56,721 nucleotides of DNA from an uncultured Bacilli bacterium. GTDB taxonomy: Bacteria; Bacillota_I; Bacilli_A; RF39; UBA660. The stretch lies in the NCBI GenBank assembly GCA_944368815.1, contig CALVXD010000003.1, forward strand, positions 1 to 56,721. Direction: 5' to 3'. The notes below the pieces were generated by a model. That model worked only from the letters and a program-made list of their open reading frames with translations, ran no database searches and had not been told where the DNA came from. The position numbers and the translations under genes were made by a program. Of this stretch, positions 1 through 7,721 are shown one piece after another. Numbering within the stretch: position 1 is the stretch's first letter; every line of letters begins with the position of its first letter.

Positions 1-79
1 AATTTATAACTGGAATTTGGTGTAAGACTAAATTCAGTTTTTTGATATTGAAACTGGAATTTACTTTTTCATTTCACGA
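1..79. mobile_element. Terminal fragment of an insertion sequence (inverted repeat at 49-79)
   Basis: 49-79 TGAAACTGGAATTTACTTTTTCATTTCACGA is the exact reverse complement of 56646-56676; both lie at contig edges. Confidence 0.65.
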
Positions 80-168
80 TTAAGAGAAAATAGTCATTAA
101 ACTATTTTTTTATTTTACATACTTGTTTATTTAGTGTATAATTATATAGAAATAGGAAAGGTGATATA

Positions 169-1056
169 GTGGAAAAAGCAAAAGTATATTTTACAAAGAA
201 TATAGACAGTGAAAGTTTAGTTAAAATGTATGAAGTTTTAAATAAAGAATTAAATGGAAAAGTTGCTGTTAAATTGTCAACAGGGGAAGCCGGTAATAAT
301 AATTATTTACACCCAGAATTAATTAAAGATTTAGTACATAAAGTAAATGGTACTATTATTGAATGTAATACAGCATATTCTGGTAAAAGAAATAGTTATG
401 AAGATCATTTAGAAGTAGCTAAAGAACATGGATTTTTAACTGTAACTGATGTAGATATAATGGACAAGGAAGGAGATATTGAACTTCCTGTAGATGGTGG
501 TAAACATTTAAAAGTAAATTATGTAGGAAAGAATTTATTAAATTATGATTCAATTCTTATGTTATCACATTTTAAAGGACATCCAATGGGAGGATTTGGA
601 GGAGCTTTAAAGAATATGTCTATTGGTATTGCTTCAAGAAGAGGTAAAGCATGGATTCATAGTGCAGGTAAGGTAGAAGATGCTAATATATTATGGGAAA
701 ATTTGCCTTCACAAGACGATTTTATTGAATCAATGGCAGAAGCCGATAAAGCAGTAATGGACAAATATAAAGATAATATTGTATATATAAATGTAATTAA
801 TAATTTATCAGTAGATTGTGATTGTGTTGCTAATCCAGAAAAAGTATGTATGAAAGATATTGGTATAGTATCTTCGTTAGATCCAATTGCTATAGATAAA
901 GCATGTTTAGATTTAGTATATAATAGTGAAGATGAAGGTAAAAAAGATTTAATTGAAAGAATTGAATCAAGAAACGGAGCTCATATTATAGAGTATGGTA
1001 AAGAGTTAGGTCTTGGTACTGATGAATATGAACTAATAAATATAGAGGAGGAGTAA
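169..1056 (+). CDS. DUF362 family protein (putative Fe-S/LarA-like fold)
   Basis: GKVAVKL.TGE, SHFKGH..GFGGALKN and DCDC motifs; GTG start with AAGGTG RBS. Confidence 0.75.
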   Translation: MEKAKVYFTKNIDSESLVKMYEVLNKELNGKVAVKLSTGEAGNNNYLHPELIKDLVHKVNGTIIECNTAYSGKRNSYEDHLEVAKEHGFLTVTDVDIMDKEGDIELPVDGGKHLKVNYVGKNLLNYDSILMLSHFKGHPMGGFGGALKNMSIGIASRRGKAWIHSAGKVEDANILWENLPSQDDFIESMAEADKAVMDKYKDNIVYINVINNLSVDCDCVANPEKVCMKDIGIVSSLDPIAIDKACLDLVYNSEDEGKKDLIERIESRNGAHIIEYGKELGLGTDEYELINIEEE

Positions 1057-1058
1057 TT

Positions 1059-1892
1059 ATGAAAGATAAAGTAATATTAGGAATAAAAGGATTTTTTATG
1101 GGAATAGCAAATATTATTCCTGGAGTTAGTGGTGGTACTCTTGCTATTACTATGGGAATATATGAAGACTTAATTAATGCAATTAGTCATTTTGTAAGTA
1201 AAATAAAAGATAATATAAAGTTTTTACTTCCAATATTAATTGGAGCAGCAGTAGCAATAGTAATAGGAAGTAAAGTAATTGGATATTCACTTGAAAATTT
1301 CCCACTTCCAACAATTATGTTTTTTACAGGATTAATATTAGGTGGTATGCCTATGTTATATAAAAAAGTAAAGAATGATATTAAAGTATCTAATTTAATA
1401 ATATTTGCATTAACATTTATGTTTGTAATAGGAATAGCTTTCTTAAAAACAGGAGGAGAAGTATCTTTTGCTTCAATGAATGTAATTGATTATATAAAAT
1501 TATTTTTAGTAGGAATGGTAGCATCAGCTACTATGATAATACCAGGAATATCAGGATCATTTATGTTAATGGTAATGGGATATTATGAACCAATAATAAA
1601 TACGATTAATAGTTTAACATCATTTAATAATATAGTTAAAGATATGTCTATATTAGTTCCTTTTGGAATAGGTGTATTAGTAGGAATAATAATTATTGCT
1701 AAAATAATAGAATTCTTATTTAAGAAATTTGAAGTGCCAACTTATTTTGGTATAATAGGATTTGTACTTGCATCTATTATTGGAATATTTACAAGTGCCG
1801 AAGGATTAACTTTTAGTATAGTACCATTTATTTTAGGAGTTATCTTATTTGTAGCAGGATTATTAATTGCATATAAATTAGGAGATGAATAA
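1059..1892 (+). CDS. DUF368 family membrane protein (undecaprenyl-phosphate translocase family)
   Basis: Duplicated IIPGVSGGT / IIPGISGS re-entrant motifs, multiple TM helices. Confidence 0.85.
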   Translation: MKDKVILGIKGFFMGIANIIPGVSGGTLAITMGIYEDLINAISHFVSKIKDNIKFLLPILIGAAVAIVIGSKVIGYSLENFPLPTIMFFTGLILGGMPMLYKKVKNDIKVSNLIIFALTFMFVIGIAFLKTGGEVSFASMNVIDYIKLFLVGMVASATMIIPGISGSFMLMVMGYYEPIINTINSLTSFNNIVKDMSILVPFGIGVLVGIIIIAKIIEFLFKKFEVPTYFGIIGFVLASIIGIFTSAEGLTFSIVPFILGVILFVAGLLIAYKLGDE

Positions 1893-1950
1893 AAAGTTTT
1901 ATGTTTAATCATAAAATTTTTTTCTATTTGAATAGAAAATATACTGTTTC

Positions 1951-2025
1951 AAAGTGCAAATACGGTTTTCTAAAGTGCAAAAATTGCACTTTGGAATTGA
2001 TAAAATAGAAGAAATGTAGTATAAT
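1951..2025 (+). promoter_or_regulatory. Sigma-A promoter with upstream palindromic operator
   Basis: TTGATA(1997-2002)-17 bp-TATAAT(2020-2025); palindrome AAAGTGCAA-AAA-TTGCACTTT at 1972-1992 plus extra half-site at 1951-1960. Confidence 0.65.
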
Positions 2026-2050
2026 ATCTATAGTTGGGAGGATTATTTTT

Positions 2051-3121
2051 ATGGACAAAAAAGAAAACTGGAATTTAGAATTATCTCAATATATAAAACA
2101 AGGTGAACCGAGTCAAGTAGAAAAAACAAAAGTTTGGGAGACAGCTATAGGTCTTCAAGAAGTAGATGGATTAAAACCTTCAAAATATTTGGTTGAAACA
2201 GCAAAGGAACATATTGAAGGAAATATTAATTTAGAAGAAGTTAAGAAAAGAATTGATAATTATTATAAAGTTTTAGATAGTAGAAAACTTGAAGAAAAAG
2301 AAAATATTGAAGAAGCAGATAAAGTATCAGTAAGAATTGCCGAAATATTAAGTGATAAGTCATTTAATTTTAGTCCTACCGAATTAATAAATATTCATAA
2401 AAAATTATTTACTGGTATATATAAACTTGCAGGTGTTATAAGGAATTATAATTTTACAAAAGATGAGTGGATATTAAATGGAGATACTGTTACATATGCT
2501 TCTTACGAAAATGTTATGGCAGCTTTAGAATATGATTTTGAACAAGAAAGAAATTTTTCATATAAAAATTTATCACTTGATGAGTCTATTAAACATTTGT
2601 GCCGATTTACTTCAAATATATGGCAAGTTCATCCTTTTTGTGAAGGTAACACTAGAACAACAGCGGTTTTTATTATTAAATACTTAAGAACATTTGGATT
2701 TAATATTAATGATGATGTATTTGCAAATAGTTCTTGGTATTTTAGAAATTCATTAGTTAGAGCTAATTATAAAAATTTTGAAAAAAATATTTTTGAAGAT
2801 ATAAGTTATTTAGAAAAGTTCTTTTACAATCTTTTATCAGATACTAAATATGAATTAAAAAATAGATATACTCATATTGATTATACTGAAGACAAAATAT
2901 GTGAAAAATTAAAGTGTAAAAATTGTACTTTAGAAGAACAAGTTATATTAAATTTGATCAAAGAAAATTCTACTATTAAACAAGATGAAATTGCTATAAT
3001 TCTTGGTAAATCATTAAGGACTATAAAGACCAGAATGAATGAAATGCAAGGAAAAGGACTAATAACTAGAAAAAATGGAAAAAGAAATGGGGAATGGGAA
3101 ATTTTATTGGAATTAAAGTAA
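2051..3121 (+). CDS. Fic family protein with N-terminal VbhA-like inhibitory region and C-terminal winged HTH
   Basis: HPFCEGNTRT Fic motif; TAIGLQEVDG N-terminal motif; C-terminal QDEIAIILGKSLRTIK...GLITRKNGKRNGEW wHTH. Confidence 0.85.
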   Translation: MDKKENWNLELSQYIKQGEPSQVEKTKVWETAIGLQEVDGLKPSKYLVETAKEHIEGNINLEEVKKRIDNYYKVLDSRKLEEKENIEEADKVSVRIAEILSDKSFNFSPTELINIHKKLFTGIYKLAGVIRNYNFTKDEWILNGDTVTYASYENVMAALEYDFEQERNFSYKNLSLDESIKHLCRFTSNIWQVHPFCEGNTRTTAVFIIKYLRTFGFNINDDVFANSSWYFRNSLVRANYKNFEKNIFEDISYLEKFFYNLLSDTKYELKNRYTHIDYTEDKICEKLKCKNCTLEEQVILNLIKENSTIKQDEIAIILGKSLRTIKTRMNEMQGKGLITRKNGKRNGEWEILLELK

Positions 3122-3218
3122 ATTATATGTTGGTATTATGAGAATTTTTTTAATTCTCTTTTTTAATTCTGAATGTTTACTATATGTAAAGTAAAAAATA
3201 TGATATAATTTATTTGAG

Positions 3219-3320
3219 GTTACAGGACCCTGTGAATTTTTAGTAATGTATGACTCATCAAGTTCAATTAATTTTTCTATAACTGTTACAGGACCCTGTG
3301 AATTTTTAGTAAATTGATTT
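3219..3320 (+). CRISPR. Orphan CRISPR-like mini-array (36-bp repeat, 30-bp spacer, degenerate second repeat)
   Basis: GTTACAGGACCCTGTGAATTTTTAGTAA identical at 3219 and 3285 (66-bp period); first unit extends to a 36-mer ending GAC; no cas genes in window. Confidence 0.55.
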
Positions 3321-3321
3321 T

Positions 3322-3352
3322 AAACTTTATCTTATTGGTAAAGTTTTTTTTT
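3322..3352 (+). terminator. Intrinsic terminator after mini-array
   Basis: AAACTTTATC-TTATT-GGTAAAGTTT followed by T-run. Confidence 0.65.
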
Positions 3353-3465
3353 GATACAAATATAATCAAATTTCTTTTATTTTTTTAAATATAGTGACAT
3401 GTTTTTATTGTAATTATTAATATTTATGTTATATTTTAAATGATGAAAGAAGGGAGTTAAAAAAT

Positions 3466-4410
3466 ATGAAAAATGAAATTATATTATTTGAAAATCAAGA
3501 TGTAAAACTTGAAGTAAATATGAAAGATGAGACAGTTTGGCTTACCCAAGATCAAATGTCTAATTTATTTGGCAAAGCAAAATCTACAATAAATGAGCAT
3601 ATTAAAAATATTTATAAAGAAGGAGAACTTGAAGAAGTTGAAACTATGACTAAATTCGGAAATTCCGAATTTTCTGATAAACCTACTAATTATTATAATC
3701 TTGATGTAGTTATAAGTGTTGGTTATCGTGTAAAATCTAAAAATGGTATAATATTTAGAAAATGGGCAAATAAAGTATTAAAAGACTATTTAATTAAAGG
3801 TTATGCTGTAAATAATAAAAGATTAGAGTATTTGGAAAAAACAATTAAATTAATTGATATAGCTAGTAGAATAGATACTAAAATAAGTGGTGATGAAGTT
3901 AAAGAAATAATTAAAGTTATAAATGATTATTCAAATGCTTTAAATTTACTTGATGATTATGACCATAAAAGAATAATTAAGCCTAAAGGTACTATTAATA
4001 ATGATAAAATTACTTATGAAGACTGTATAAATATTATTAATACATTAAAATTTAATAATGGTAGTAATTTATTTGCTTTAGAGAGAAATAAAGGATTAGA
4101 TTCAATTATAAATGCAGTATATCAATCTTTTGATGATAAAGATTTATATATATCTATAGAGGAAAAAGCTGCTAATTTCTTATATTTAATTGTTAAGAAT
4201 CACGTATTTATTGATGGTAATAAAAGAATTGGAGCAACTTTATTTATATACTTTTTATGGTATTATAATTTATTATATAAAGATGGAAAACAGATTATAG
4301 ATAATAATACTTTAGTAGCAATTACTTTATTAATTGCACAGTCTAATCCTAAAGAAAAAAATGTATTAATAGATTTAGTTATGAACTTTTTAACTAATAA
4401 ATATTGCTAA
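3466..4410 (+). CDS. RhuM-family DNA-binding domain fused to Fic/Doc domain
   Basis: ETVWLTQ.QM..LF, YNLDVVISVGYRVKS (RhuM); HVFIDGNKRIG Doc-type motif. Confidence 0.85.
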   Translation: MKNEIILFENQDVKLEVNMKDETVWLTQDQMSNLFGKAKSTINEHIKNIYKEGELEEVETMTKFGNSEFSDKPTNYYNLDVVISVGYRVKSKNGIIFRKWANKVLKDYLIKGYAVNNKRLEYLEKTIKLIDIASRIDTKISGDEVKEIIKVINDYSNALNLLDDYDHKRIIKPKGTINNDKITYEDCINIINTLKFNNGSNLFALERNKGLDSIINAVYQSFDDKDLYISIEEKAANFLYLIVKNHVFIDGNKRIGATLFIYFLWYYNLLYKDGKQIIDNNTLVAITLLIAQSNPKEKNVLIDLVMNFLTNKYC

Positions 4411-4452
4411 TTTATATATACAATTGTATAATAATATGTAAGGAGAATATTT

Positions 4453-5208
4453 ATGATAATAGTTAAAAATATAAAGAAAAAATTTATAAAACAAAAATCT
4501 AAAAAAGAAAAAGAAGAGTTTTATGCTGTAAATGATATTTCGTTTAGTATAGATAAAGGAGAAATAGTAGGAATATTAGGTCCTAATGGAGCAGGAAAAA
4601 CAACTCTTTTAAGAATGATTGCAGGTATTATGACTCCGAGTGATGGAGAAGTATTATTTGATAAATTAAATTATAAAAAGAATGAAATAGAGATAAAGAA
4701 AAGTATTGCTTATTTATCTGGTAATACTAAAATATATAATAGTATATCTGCTTATGAACTATTAAAAATGTGTGGAGAATATTATGAAGTAAATAAAGAA
4801 GAGTTAGAAAGTAGAATAAAAGAGGTATCTTCTGTACTTAATATGGATAGTTTCTTATATAACCGTATTGAAAATCTATCTACAGGACAAACTCAAAGAG
4901 TAAATATTGCTAGATGCTTAGTTCATAATCCTAAATATTATATATTAGATGAAGCTACTAGTGGACTTGATATTATATCTAGTCAAATAATATTGGATTT
5001 TATAAAAGAAGAAAAAAAGAAAGGAAAGAGTATCTTATATTCAACGCATTATATGGAAGAAGCCGAAAATGTATGTGATAGAGTAATTATGGTAAATAAA
5101 GGTAAAGTTATAATTGAAGGGACTCCTAATGAAATTAAAAAGAAAACAAATACAAGTAATTTAAGGGATGCTTTCTTTAAACTAATAGGGGGTAATTATG
5201 AAAAATAA
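4453..5208 (+). CDS. ABC exporter ATP-binding subunit (NatA-like)
   Basis: GPNGAGKTT Walker A, LSTGQ signature, ILDE Walker B, STH switch. Confidence 0.85.
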   Translation: MIIVKNIKKKFIKQKSKKEKEEFYAVNDISFSIDKGEIVGILGPNGAGKTTLLRMIAGIMTPSDGEVLFDKLNYKKNEIEIKKSIAYLSGNTKIYNSISAYELLKMCGEYYEVNKEELESRIKEVSSVLNMDSFLYNRIENLSTGQTQRVNIARCLVHNPKYYILDEATSGLDIISSQIILDFIKEEKKKGKSILYSTHYMEEAENVCDRVIMVNKGKVIIEGTPNEIKKKTNTSNLRDAFFKLIGGNYEK

Positions 5209-6349
5209 AATATTTGAAGTATTAAAAAAAGAATTAAGAGAAGTATTTAGAGATAAGAAATCTTTATCTATGATGTTAATAATTCCAATTATGATACCTT
5301 TAATTATACTAGGAATGTCAGCAGTATTTGAAGGACAGTTATCTAAAGATACAAGTTCTTATAATAAAATAGGATTTGCTTATGAGTTATCTAATTCTGA
5401 ATTAGAATTAACTAAAAGTATGAATATTGATTATGTTATAGATACAGAAGATAATTTAAAAAAATTATTTAATAATGATGAAATATACTTATATGTAACT
5501 AAAACGGATAATAAATATACATTAAATTATAATTCAAATACAGAAAGTGGAAGTTATGCTTCAATACTTATGGACAGTTATTTTAATAATTATAAGAATA
5601 TATTACAACAAGATTTATTATTAAATAGTGGAATAAATCCTGAAAATATATTAAATGTAATAACAGTAGATTCTAATAATATTGGTACTACTAACTTTTA
5701 TTCATCTTATATAGTAAGTTATGCTTTCTTATTTATAATAATGGCAATTACTGTATCAGCAACTTATCCAGCAACAGATACAACTGCGGGTGAAAAGGAA
5801 AGAGGAACACTAGAAACTTTACTTACGTTCCCAATTAAAAGTAGAGATATAATAGTAGGTAAGCTTTTATCAGTTACATTATCATCAATTATAACAGGAG
5901 TTCTTAGTTTAATACTTGCATTAATTGCCTTTAATATTGCAAATGATACTTTTACAATATATGAAAGTTCTAAAATAACATTAAGTGCACCAAGTATTAT
6001 TATGAGTATCTTTGTAATAATAGTATTTTCATTATTTATAAGTGGTTTATGTATAGCAATAGCTAGTATGTGTAAAAGTTTTAAAGAAGCTCAAAGTGCA
6101 TTAACTCCTCTTACATTTATTGCATTATTTCCAGGAATGATTGCATTTATGGTAGGAGTTAAATCTAGTACTTTATTATCAATTATTCCATTTTTAAACT
6201 TTTCATTAGTATTTAATGACATAAGTGTAGGAATAATAAATTATTTAGAAATATTTCTTATGTTTATATCTACAATTATTTATATAGTTATAGTAATATG
6301 GTTTATAGTTAAATCTTATAAAAGTGAAAAAATATTATTTAACGATTAA
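5198..6349 (+). CDS. ABC-2 permease (NatB-like)
   Basis: KKELREVFRD N-terminus, AGEKERGTLETLL motif, SFKEAQS; about 6 TM. Confidence 0.85.
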   Translation: MKNKIFEVLKKELREVFRDKKSLSMMLIIPIMIPLIILGMSAVFEGQLSKDTSSYNKIGFAYELSNSELELTKSMNIDYVIDTEDNLKKLFNNDEIYLYVTKTDNKYTLNYNSNTESGSYASILMDSYFNNYKNILQQDLLLNSGINPENILNVITVDSNNIGTTNFYSSYIVSYAFLFIIMAITVSATYPATDTTAGEKERGTLETLLTFPIKSRDIIVGKLLSVTLSSIITGVLSLILALIAFNIANDTFTIYESSKITLSAPSIIMSIFVIIVFSLFISGLCIAIASMCKSFKEAQSALTPLTFIALFPGMIAFMVGVKSSTLLSIIPFLNFSLVFNDISVGIINYLEIFLMFISTIIYIVIVIWFIVKSYKSEKILFND

Positions 6350-6351
6350 AA

Positions 6352-6377
6352 AACACAGAATCATTATTTTCTGTGTT
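6352..6377. terminator. Bidirectional terminator between convergent genes
   Basis: AACACAGAA...TTCTGTGTT inverted repeat. Confidence 0.5.
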
Positions 6378-7572
6378 CCTTTTTCCTTTTATTTTTAGTT
6401 ATTAAAATTATAATAACATTAATAATTACAATGAATAATACAATAAATATAATATTATCAATTAATAAATCTGATATTGATAAAGTTAAACTTCCATCAT
6501 ACATAATAGGAATTGTTCTTATTATTTCTTCGTTAAGTTTTATTGTCATTGTTCCTATTTGACCTTTTTTAGTAAAAGGAGTGACAATATTATTCCCTTG
6601 ATAATCAAATGTAAAGTTTTCTTTTGTTATATCTTTATTTACAAATTTAGATATATTTTCATCAAGAAATACATTATATTTATCTTCTTTACTATAATTA
6701 GTATTTATAGATATTAGTGGTTCTTCTTTATTATAAATATCAAGATTATAATAATTATTTATATAATATTCATAAATATTAAAAGCATCAATAAAGTGAT
6801 AAGGATATCTTGTTTCTGATGGAGCACCAGTAGTTACCAATAAATATTCCATACCATCATATTTAGCAATACTAGCAAGACATAAACCTGCAATATCAGT
6901 AAATCCTGTTTTACTTCCATATATATATTTATTATCTAATTTATAAGTATTAGTATAATATAATAAAGTACTTTCTAATTTTAACCTACCATTACTAGTA
7001 GTATAAGTAGTAGTGGTAAATATTTCTTTAAATGTTTCATTTTTTAAAGCATATTTAAGTAAAGTAGCAATATCTTTAACAGATGAATAATTGTTTATAT
7101 CATCAAGTCCTGTTACATCAGAGAAATGTGTATGTTTAAGATTTAATTCACTTGCTTTTTTATTCATTAATTTAACATATTCATCTACTCCTCCAGCAAT
7201 ATAATAGGCAAGAGTTTGTGTAGCATCTGCTCCGGAAGGAAGTAGGGAACCATATAGTAAATCTTTATATGTAACTTTTTCATTAAGTTTAAAACCTGCG
7301 ACTGATGCATTTGCTTCCACTAATCCTTCTAATCCTTCTTTTGGAATAGTTACAGTTTTATTTATATCATCAATGTTTTCAATAGCAACAATAGAAGTCA
7401 TTATCTTCGTAAGACTTGCTATTGGTACTTCTTTTTCTGAATCTTTTTCAAAAAGTATTTCATCATCATTCATATTATATAAAATAGCATTCTTAGAATT
7501 AATTTCTAAAGCATTTACCTTAATAGGTATTAAAATAATAAATAGTATTAGTAAATATTTTATGTGTTTCAT
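6364..7572 (-). CDS. dacA: D-alanyl-D-alanine carboxypeptidase (peptidase S11)
   Basis: Signal peptide, IASLTK (SxxK), KTG motif, C-terminal TM anchor. Confidence 0.85.
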   Translation of the reverse strand: MKHIKYLLILFIILIPIKVNALEINSKNAILYNMNDDEILFEKDSEKEVPIASLTKIMTSIVAIENIDDINKTVTIPKEGLEGLVEANASVAGFKLNEKVTYKDLLYGSLLPSGADATQTLAYYIAGGVDEYVKLMNKKASELNLKHTHFSDVTGLDDINNYSSVKDIATLLKYALKNETFKEIFTTTTYTTSNGRLKLESTLLYYTNTYKLDNKYIYGSKTGFTDIAGLCLASIAKYDGMEYLLVTTGAPSETRYPYHFIDAFNIYEYYINNYYNLDIYNKEEPLISINTNYSKEDKYNVFLDENISKFVNKDITKENFTFDYQGNNIVTPFTKKGQIGTMTIKLNEEIIRTIPIMYDGSLTLSISDLLIDNIIFIVLFIVIINVIIILITKNKRKKEHRK

Positions 7573-7721
7573 TTTTCTCTCCTTTTATTCTCGTCTATTC
7601 AATTATAAAATTATAAGATATAAATGTCAATAAATAATAATAAATGAAATATAAGTTGTCATTTTTATGTTGTAGAATATAAATTTGTGTTGTGTTATAA
7701 TTAATAAAAGGAGAAGTTGAA

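Follow-up and report, generated by a model that had tools for sequence, protein, structure and literature searches.

A repeat-spacer-repeat stub between two Fic genes is probably the relic of a deleted type II-A CRISPR-Cas locus

The analyzed stretch of DNA, here referred to as the window, is 56,721 nt long and carries a short repeat-spacer-repeat unit between two genes for Fic-domain proteins. This unit, here named the stub, lies on the forward strand and starts with an extended -10 element of the TGnTATAAT type, TGATATAAT (3201-3209; TG at 3201-3202 and TATAAT at 3204-3209), which is separated from the first repeat by the nine nucleotides TTATTTGAG (3210-3218). The first repeat is a full 36-mer, GTTACAGG...TGTATGAC (3219-3254), and is followed by a single spacer of 30 nt (3255-3284) and a degenerate second repeat (3285-3320). 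In the latter 28 nt (3285-3312) were identical to the first copy and the last 8 nt (3313-3320) had diverged. Comparison of the repeat family across the region gave a spacing of 66 for the two copies. The positions given in a preliminary description of this DNA for the -10 box, the 36-mer, the spacer and the 28-nt second copy were all borne out by the sequence.

Downstream of the second repeat an AT-rich hairpin with a U-run is located (3322-3352, +), a probable weak intrinsic terminator. In the minimum free energy (MFE) fold of 3216-3352 (-27.6 kcal/mol, z = -2.1) it formed a 10-bp stem from 3322 to 3346 with the U-run extending to 3352. A consensus terminator scan called no site; the rule applied there needs at least three G-C pairs, and the hairpin is too AT-rich for it. 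As judged from the fold, a role as terminator appears plausible but weak. No good -35 element was found for the stub promoter, and the consensus scan listed only a 9-of-12 site in another register. The promoter and the terminator-like end reported earlier for the stub are nevertheless both present, as TGATATAAT and as the hairpin of the MFE fold. A scan of 2900-3600 against Rfam at E <= 10 resulted in three matches, all with E >= 0.99 and far under the gathering scores.

The upstream neighbour (2051-3121, +) encodes a Fic-domain protein (Pfam Fic PF02661, E 2e-11) with a C-terminal winged HTH (HTH_24, E 3.8e-7), which matched the PADLOC candidate defence family PDC-S72 over nearly its full length (E 5.2e-123). 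A segment similar to the VbhA antitoxin was found in the same protein as a weak Pfam match below the cut-off (E 7e-4). The downstream neighbour (3466-4410, +) encodes a RhuM-Fic/Doc protein (Pfam Virulence_RhuM, E 3.4e-20; Fic, E 2e-11) and matched the PADLOC candidate PDC-S23, again nearly full-length (E 6.8e-117). Since both Fic neighbours match candidate defence families, the site represents a defence island. Between the stub and the downstream gene lie the terminator-like hairpin and 113 nt (3353-3465).

The genome of the window, here named G000, is an assembly of 1.27 Mb in 71 contigs with a completeness of 91.5% and a G+C content of 25%. It contained the 36-mer twice, both copies being those of the stub, and a reversed control gave no matches. 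Together with 100 relatives, 101 genomes were searched for the repeat with up to 3 mismatches. It was present in six of them, all belonging to the genus of the window, namely G000 and five of the six other members (G001 to G006). The 94 genomes from other genera had no copy. The number of copies was 33 in G002, 27 in G003 and 51 in G004; G001 and G005 had two copies each and G006 had none. In G002, G003 and G004 the copies formed regular arrays with a period of 65-66 and spacers of 29-31 nt, a length which the spacer of the window fits as well. The full 36-mer of the window was the unit in 31 of the 33 copies of G002 and in 50 of the 51 copies of G004, and G003 carried a variant with one change (A28G) in 25 of 27 copies. 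Additionally, a GTDB scan with one genome per species identified the repeat on seven contigs, all from 'uncultured Bacilli bacterium'; two of these, with 9 and 5 repeat copies, were absent from the sample of relatives. The arrays of 27-51 repeats in three congeners rule out a chance local duplication as the origin of the 36-mer pair.

The terminal repeats of the long arrays of G002 and G004 diverged at the same point as that of the window. They ended in ...GTAAATTTATTT in G002 and G004 and in ...GTAAATTGATTT in the window, and the same trailer followed in both cases. Because the second repeat of the stub degenerates like these terminal repeats and precedes the same native trailer, the remnant can be read as the first repeat and the terminal repeat of the ancestral array with one spacer in between. 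In total, 165 distinct spacers were found across the arrays, of which three were common to G002 and G004 and one to G002 and contig L030. The spacer of the window was identical to that of G001 and resembled none of the others.

The window was syntenic with G002, G004, G005 and G001. In G002 a CRISPR-Cas locus is located between the same two Fic genes as the stub, and its two sides are matched by positions 79-3212 (98.2% identity) and 3219-7664 (93.9%) of the window. The locus is arranged in the order cas9 promoter, cas9, cas1, cas2, tracrRNA and csn2 (both on the opposite strand), leader with promoter, array and trailer. The counterpart of the upstream Fic gene (L022 7034-8104) lies directly 5' of cas9, and the RhuM-Fic gene is syntenic 3' of the arrays in G002, G004 and G005. 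The Cas9 of G002 has 1215 aa (TIGR01865, 572 bits) with RuvC_III and HNH_4 domains. Cas1 is of type II (TIGR03639, 280 bits), and Cas2 is encoded as well. Csn2 with 346 aa was full-length according to PADLOC (PDLC01597, E 1.6e-87) and had no match in Pfam or NCBIfam. By its gene content the system is assigned to type II-A. Cas9 was present in three of the seven genomes of the genus, which were exactly those with long arrays (G002, G003 and G004).

Several further observations concern the locus in these strains. In G002 csn2 is inverted relative to cas9-cas1-cas2 (L022 901-1941, +), and homologous regions were found in G003 and G004. Among solved structures, those closest to the G002 Cas9 were Cas9 chains of approximately 1055-1154 residues (E ~1e-100 to 1e-104). 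The CRISPR-Cas locus of G003 is situated in a different genomic context. G003 and G006 provided no further stages of decay, as they were too divergent or non-syntenic at the site. With regard to the island as a whole, a CRISPR-Cas system was inserted into, or lost from, a small Fic-flanked defence island.

The interval between cas2 and csn2 of G002 contains a tracrRNA-like element that runs opposite to the cas genes. It is composed of a -10 box, an anti-repeat and three hairpins, the last of them with a U-run, and it was conserved in all five cas-bearing loci examined with a mean column identity of 90%. The duplex of repeat and anti-repeat reached -44.1 kcal/mol compared to -9.7 +/- 2.8 kcal/mol for 200 shuffled repeats, and nearly the whole repeat was paired. 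Furthermore, the A28G change in the repeat of G003 was matched by a T-to-C change at the pairing position of the G003 anti-repeat. The stub thus shares with type II-A arrays the identity of its repeat to arrays linked to cas9-cas1-cas2-csn2, the pairing with the anti-repeat, a spacer of about 30 nt, a leader promoter at the first repeat and a degenerate last repeat. The preliminary description had taken the unit for part of a class 2 CRISPR system, which proved to be real and is specified as type II-A by the relatives; the repeat, cas9 and tracrRNA, which it had proposed to look for there, were all found in congeners.

How the stub relates to the complete locus became apparent from the sequences bordering the cas block. 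The region 5' of cas9 in G002 ends with ...AAAAAATATGATATAAT, followed by 21 nt and the ATG of cas9, and the leader ends with ...AAAAAGTGTGATATAAT, followed by TTATTTGAG and the first repeat. In a three-way alignment the window was equal to the cas9 promoter of G002 to the left of TGATATAAT and to the leader of G002 to the right of it. This switch at TGATATAAT places the crossover inside the shared 9-bp -10 box. The deletion junction is therefore a 9-bp microhomology (3201-3209, +) common to the cas9 promoter and the array leader, and the two -10 boxes that bracket the cas block are alike at 15 of 17 nt. According to the coordinates of G002 the deletion has a size of about 6.1 kb.

The region from 3163 to 3209 (+) corresponds to the sequence 5' of cas9 in G002 up to and including TGATATAAT and hence derives from the cas9 promoter. 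Of the leader, the last 18 nt are retained, with the -10 box included. Its last 9 nt (3210-3218, +) were identical in G002, G004, G005 and in three of three metagenome contigs obtained by a scan for the leader-repeat junction. All three of these contigs carried the native leader, with 7, 22 or 31 repeats, and the deletion allele was not among them. The opposite course of events, insertion of the cas block into a pre-existing stub with a 9-bp target duplication, was rejected: the block is without a transposase, a repeat-spacer-repeat unit cannot predate Cas1-Cas2, and the similarity of the boxes runs to 15 of 17 nt, as expected of two promoters.

None of the deleted components was found elsewhere in G000. 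Models of Cas1 (PF01867) and Cas9 (TIGR01865) had no match in the assembly (91.5% complete, 71 contigs), and tblastn with Cas9, Cas1, Cas2 and Csn2 of G002 gave a best E value of 0.21 (Cas9), with those of Cas1, Cas2 and Csn2 all above 1. Neither a tracrRNA nor an anti-repeat was detected in G000; the tracrRNA region of G002 matched by blastn only the repeat itself (C3:3220-3252, 33 nt, same strand) and short AT-rich words. With cas9, tracrRNA and both cas1 and cas2 missing, the assembly of G000 lacks a complete type II system; a second cas9-tracrRNA locus would have to lie in the part of the genome that the assembly does not cover. That no cas gene or anti-repeat is visible, as previously remarked for the window, accordingly holds for the whole assembly by protein models, tblastn and blastn. 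No other CRISPR-like array was present in G000. Three tandem repeats (C28:2750-3177, C32:11377-11746 and C44:7815-8086) had periods of 81, 48/96 and 54-87 nt, all of them divisible by three, and probably represent coding sequence of a repetitive kind rather than CRISPR.

Comparison of strains revealed further copies of the deletion allele. In G001, which represents a different species, the hybrid promoter, the spacer and the terminal repeat were identical to those of the window. The two genomes differed at 3 sites in 1600-3400, at about 3% of the positions in 200-1600 and at about 19% in 3400-3800 (76 positions). As this near-identity is limited to one block, the block was recently shared and its identity says nothing on constraint. 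The deletion allele is therefore young or recently exchanged. Just 3' of the stub the similarity of G000 and G001 breaks off at a sharp recombination boundary, and the PDC-S23-like gene varies strongly in its N-terminal part.

At least 75% of the sampled words of 2600-4000 were present in 18 DNA runs from chicken gut, other animal gut or unspecified metagenomes, two of which may be the source sample of the window. The junction was judged from contigs of two unrelated public DNA runs, X3 and X8, and not from the word shares in the 18 runs (0.75-1.00). A contig of X8 with 699 nt covered 2748-3447 with one substitution and one gap and contained the deletion allele with the same spacer. The contig of X3 (3113 nt, depth 39) covered 2600-3675 and was identical in flanks, promoter and repeats, with a different spacer. 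All 11 substitutions and two of the three indels fell within 3256-3284; the third indel was a single T in a homopolymer at 3344. Variation of the spacer between strains at fixed repeats, which the preliminary description had proposed to look for, was thus found in X3. Repeats and promoter were without mutation in the window, G001, X3 and X8. The simplest reading of these alleles would be a cas-less ancestor with several spacers that collapsed differently in each lineage. X8 additionally contained a contig end which follows the window as far as 3209, apart from a G>T change at 3191 that was present in two contigs, and then runs into a third sequence, different from both the 5' region of cas9 and the leader. 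This continuation represents a third arrangement at the same TGATATAAT box.

A second, independent loss of the cas genes was observed in G005, whose homology to the G002 locus begins within csn2, 50 nt from the 5' end of this gene. G005 keeps the native leader and one other spacer, and its terminal repeat has three mutations, which are a sign of decay. Beside the retained leader, the place of the upstream Fic gene and of the cas block is taken by an ORF of 216 aa (L027 2874-3524, -). Its interpretation as a truncated csn2 was rejected, given a BLASTP E value of 0.55 and only the first 50 nt of csn2 remaining; no family was assigned to it, the one NCBIfam match (E 0.0078) being far below the cut-off.

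In total, three independent alleles were found (window/G001/X8, X3 and G005). In each of them exactly one spacer is left and the promoter-proximal end of the leader is intact, a state which could hint at selective retention. It is also compatible with neutral decay. By reasoning rather than computation, n repeats offer n(n-1)/2 recombining pairs, so that the two-repeat state would be the longest-lived one in the course of a collapse.

The searches for a target of the spacer found none. In G000 only the spacer itself was found at up to 5 mismatches, and the exact 30-mer did not occur in the viral contigs of IMG/VR. The 3' 20-mer of the spacer had 15 matches in viral contigs. These came from 4 unrelated contexts, in which the 5' 10 nt of the spacer had 6 to 10 mismatches, and they were judged to be chance matches. 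Phage and plasmid collections searched in distant mode gave nothing below E = 1, and 300 genomes of the family, a sample that did not include G001, contained no match at up to 3 mismatches. The whole array of G004 had no match to phages in near mode either, so that neither a PAM nor a target was obtained for the family. A target as in functional orphan arrays of the Enterococcus faecalis CRISPR2 type was thus not found for the spacer.

In the RNA-library runs X19 and X20 no contig covered 3211-3445. X20, a library from chicken gut, contained a contig over 3097-3209 which runs on into the 5' end of cas9 and hence belongs to a strain with cas9. Contigs assembled from an RNA library are in any case no proof of transcription.

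Taken together, we consider the stub very probably to be an orphan relic of a deleted type II-A CRISPR-Cas locus, which is non-functional and probably still transcribed. The homology to the intact locus and the junction were directly observed, as was the lack of cas genes and tracrRNA; the course of events is deduced from sequence comparison. According to this scenario, the cas9 promoter and the leader each contained the same 9-bp -10 box, and a deletion of about 6 kb between the two boxes would have taken out cas9, cas1, cas2, the tracrRNA, csn2 and all of the leader but 18 nt. The part of the cas9 promoter that remained, its upstream half, would thereby have been fused to the final 9 nt of the leader, giving rise to a hybrid promoter. 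Of the array, repeat-to-repeat recombination presumably left the first repeat and the degenerate terminal one with a single spacer between them. A pre-crRNA-like RNA of about 130 nt, ending at the trailer hairpin, is probably still made from the hybrid promoter. RNase III would be unable to process such a transcript without a tracrRNA, and nothing would be guided without Cas9. The stub is therefore probably a neutral, decaying relic, which could become relevant once more only upon the return of a cognate cas9-tracrRNA module.

A type II crRNA requires both Cas9 and tracrRNA. A stub that is still in use as an orphan mini-array, with its transcript loaded into a Cas9 provided in trans by an unassembled part of the genome or by a mobile element and serving as a defence or regulatory guide in the manner of E. 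faecalis CRISPR2 or the scaRNA of Francisella, would fit the intact promoter, full repeat, spacer and terminator-like end, and also the different spacers of otherwise identical alleles. Cognate Cas9 and tracrRNA circulate in the genus, the RNA library X20 holding a contig of the cas9-bearing allele, and CRISPR2 of E. faecalis defends only if the cas9 of CRISPR1 is supplied (PMC4894674). However, the native cas copy was demonstrably deleted on a contiguous contig of 56.7 kb, the 91.5% complete G000 is without Cas9, Cas1, Cas2, Csn2 and anti-repeat, G001 (95%) is without Cas9, and no spacer target was found in the own genome, the 300 family genomes, phages, plasmids or viral contigs. We therefore regard this explanation as unlikely, and the Cas effector borrowed in trans that had been suggested for the unit found no support. 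That the assembler of the metagenome collapsed or skipped a long array together with the cas genes is extremely improbable. The source is indeed a metagenome-assembled genome of 71 contigs, and CRISPR arrays are often misassembled, but the sequence at the cas deletion junction is unique, and the 9 bp of homology there are shorter than any assembly k-mer. The same junction was present in a second metagenome-assembled genome (G001) and in contigs of two other runs made with another assembler, and the X3 contig with a depth of 39 crosses the repeat-spacer-repeat unit unbroken.

An RNA antitoxin for a neighbouring Fic/Doc toxin had also been proposed. A Cas-independent small RNA which regulates, or acts as antitoxin to, one of the Fic genes would be in line with the location between two Fic-domain genes, with 12 nt of perfect complementarity to the upstream gene (2575-2586), with 17 nt of 82% complementarity to the downstream gene (3940-3956) and with rliB, a cas-less CRISPR of Listeria cited as regulatory in PMC4894674. 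Yet comparable inverted matches were common (16 pairs in 1.7 kb), and the two involving Fic genes were no better than the other 14. Congeners hold a complete CRISPR-Cas locus at the same position between the same Fic genes, so the adjacency is inherited and not functional. The changes in X3 (11 substitutions and 2 indels, all of them within the spacer) destroy any spacer-based complementarity while the flanks are identical. Besides, a weak VbhA-like segment (E 7e-4, below the cut-off) is already part of the upstream Fic protein itself, and no Rfam family was matched. A regulatory role towards the Fic genes is thus very unlikely, and the antitoxin proposal could not be upheld. In type III toxin-antitoxin systems tandem RNA repeats are located directly 5' of an endoribonuclease toxin, with which they are co-transcribed and which processes them. 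A ToxI-like RNA of this kind was rejected, because the neighbours are Fic/Doc proteins and not RNases of the ToxN/AbiE type and because the hairpin and 113 nt intervene.

The relic of a deleted locus is hence the interpretation we favour. It explains an apparent orphan guide RNA by ordinary loss of CRISPR-Cas and takes it off the list of candidate new RNA systems. Beyond that, it would provide a base-resolved natural example of the loss of a Cas9 locus, in which a deletion joins the -10 boxes of two promoters and the array then collapses. Presence or absence of CRISPR-Cas is polymorphic in this uncultured, small-genome lineage of chicken-gut Bacilli, within a defence island flanked by Fic genes. 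As a by-product, a type II-A system with inverted csn2 was found, the Cas9 of which has compact nearest solved relatives. It is tempting to extend the interpretation further: the -10 boxes around the cas block might act as a built-in deletion hotspot which switches immunity off, the stub and its conserved flanks might serve as a homology pad for regaining the block from cas-bearing kin or as a stand-by guide, and one-spacer alleles might be under selection. This we consider speculative and quite unlikely.

Comparable units have been described in other bacteria. The survey 'CRISPR arrays away from cas genes' reportedly contains real arrays without adjacent cas genes, which are explained by loss of the cas operon. 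To such orphan arrays the stub adds a mechanism, a promoter-to-promoter microhomology deletion resulting in a hybrid promoter. The scaRNA of Francisella and the mini-arrays of phages or plasmids likewise have one or two repeats and a single guide-like segment. Such units work together with a resident Cas effector, and in the case of scaRNA a tracrRNA is needed as well. In the genome of the stub, by contrast, neither Cas9 nor tracrRNA was found.

In Listeria monocytogenes, rliB is a cas-less CRISPR RNA which is reportedly processed by PNPase and regulatory, as cited in PMC4894674. Both rliB and the stub are small cas-less repeat-spacer units; rliB is transcribed without cas genes, and for the stub a transcript is likely. 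The two differ in that the spacer of the stub is not conserved, as seen in X3, and that neither processing nor a target was seen for it. The closest known case is CRISPR2 of E. faecalis, an orphan of type II-A. CRISPR2 is also cas-less, with repeats identical to those of a Cas9-bearing locus of other strains, and its spacer content varies between strains (PMC4580645). However, CRISPR2 is reportedly a separate locus that exists in all strains beside CRISPR1-cas, whereas the stub is located at the former cas locus itself. It further differs from CRISPR2 in its single spacer, in the additional loss of the tracrRNA and in a deletion that is mapped to a 9-bp box.
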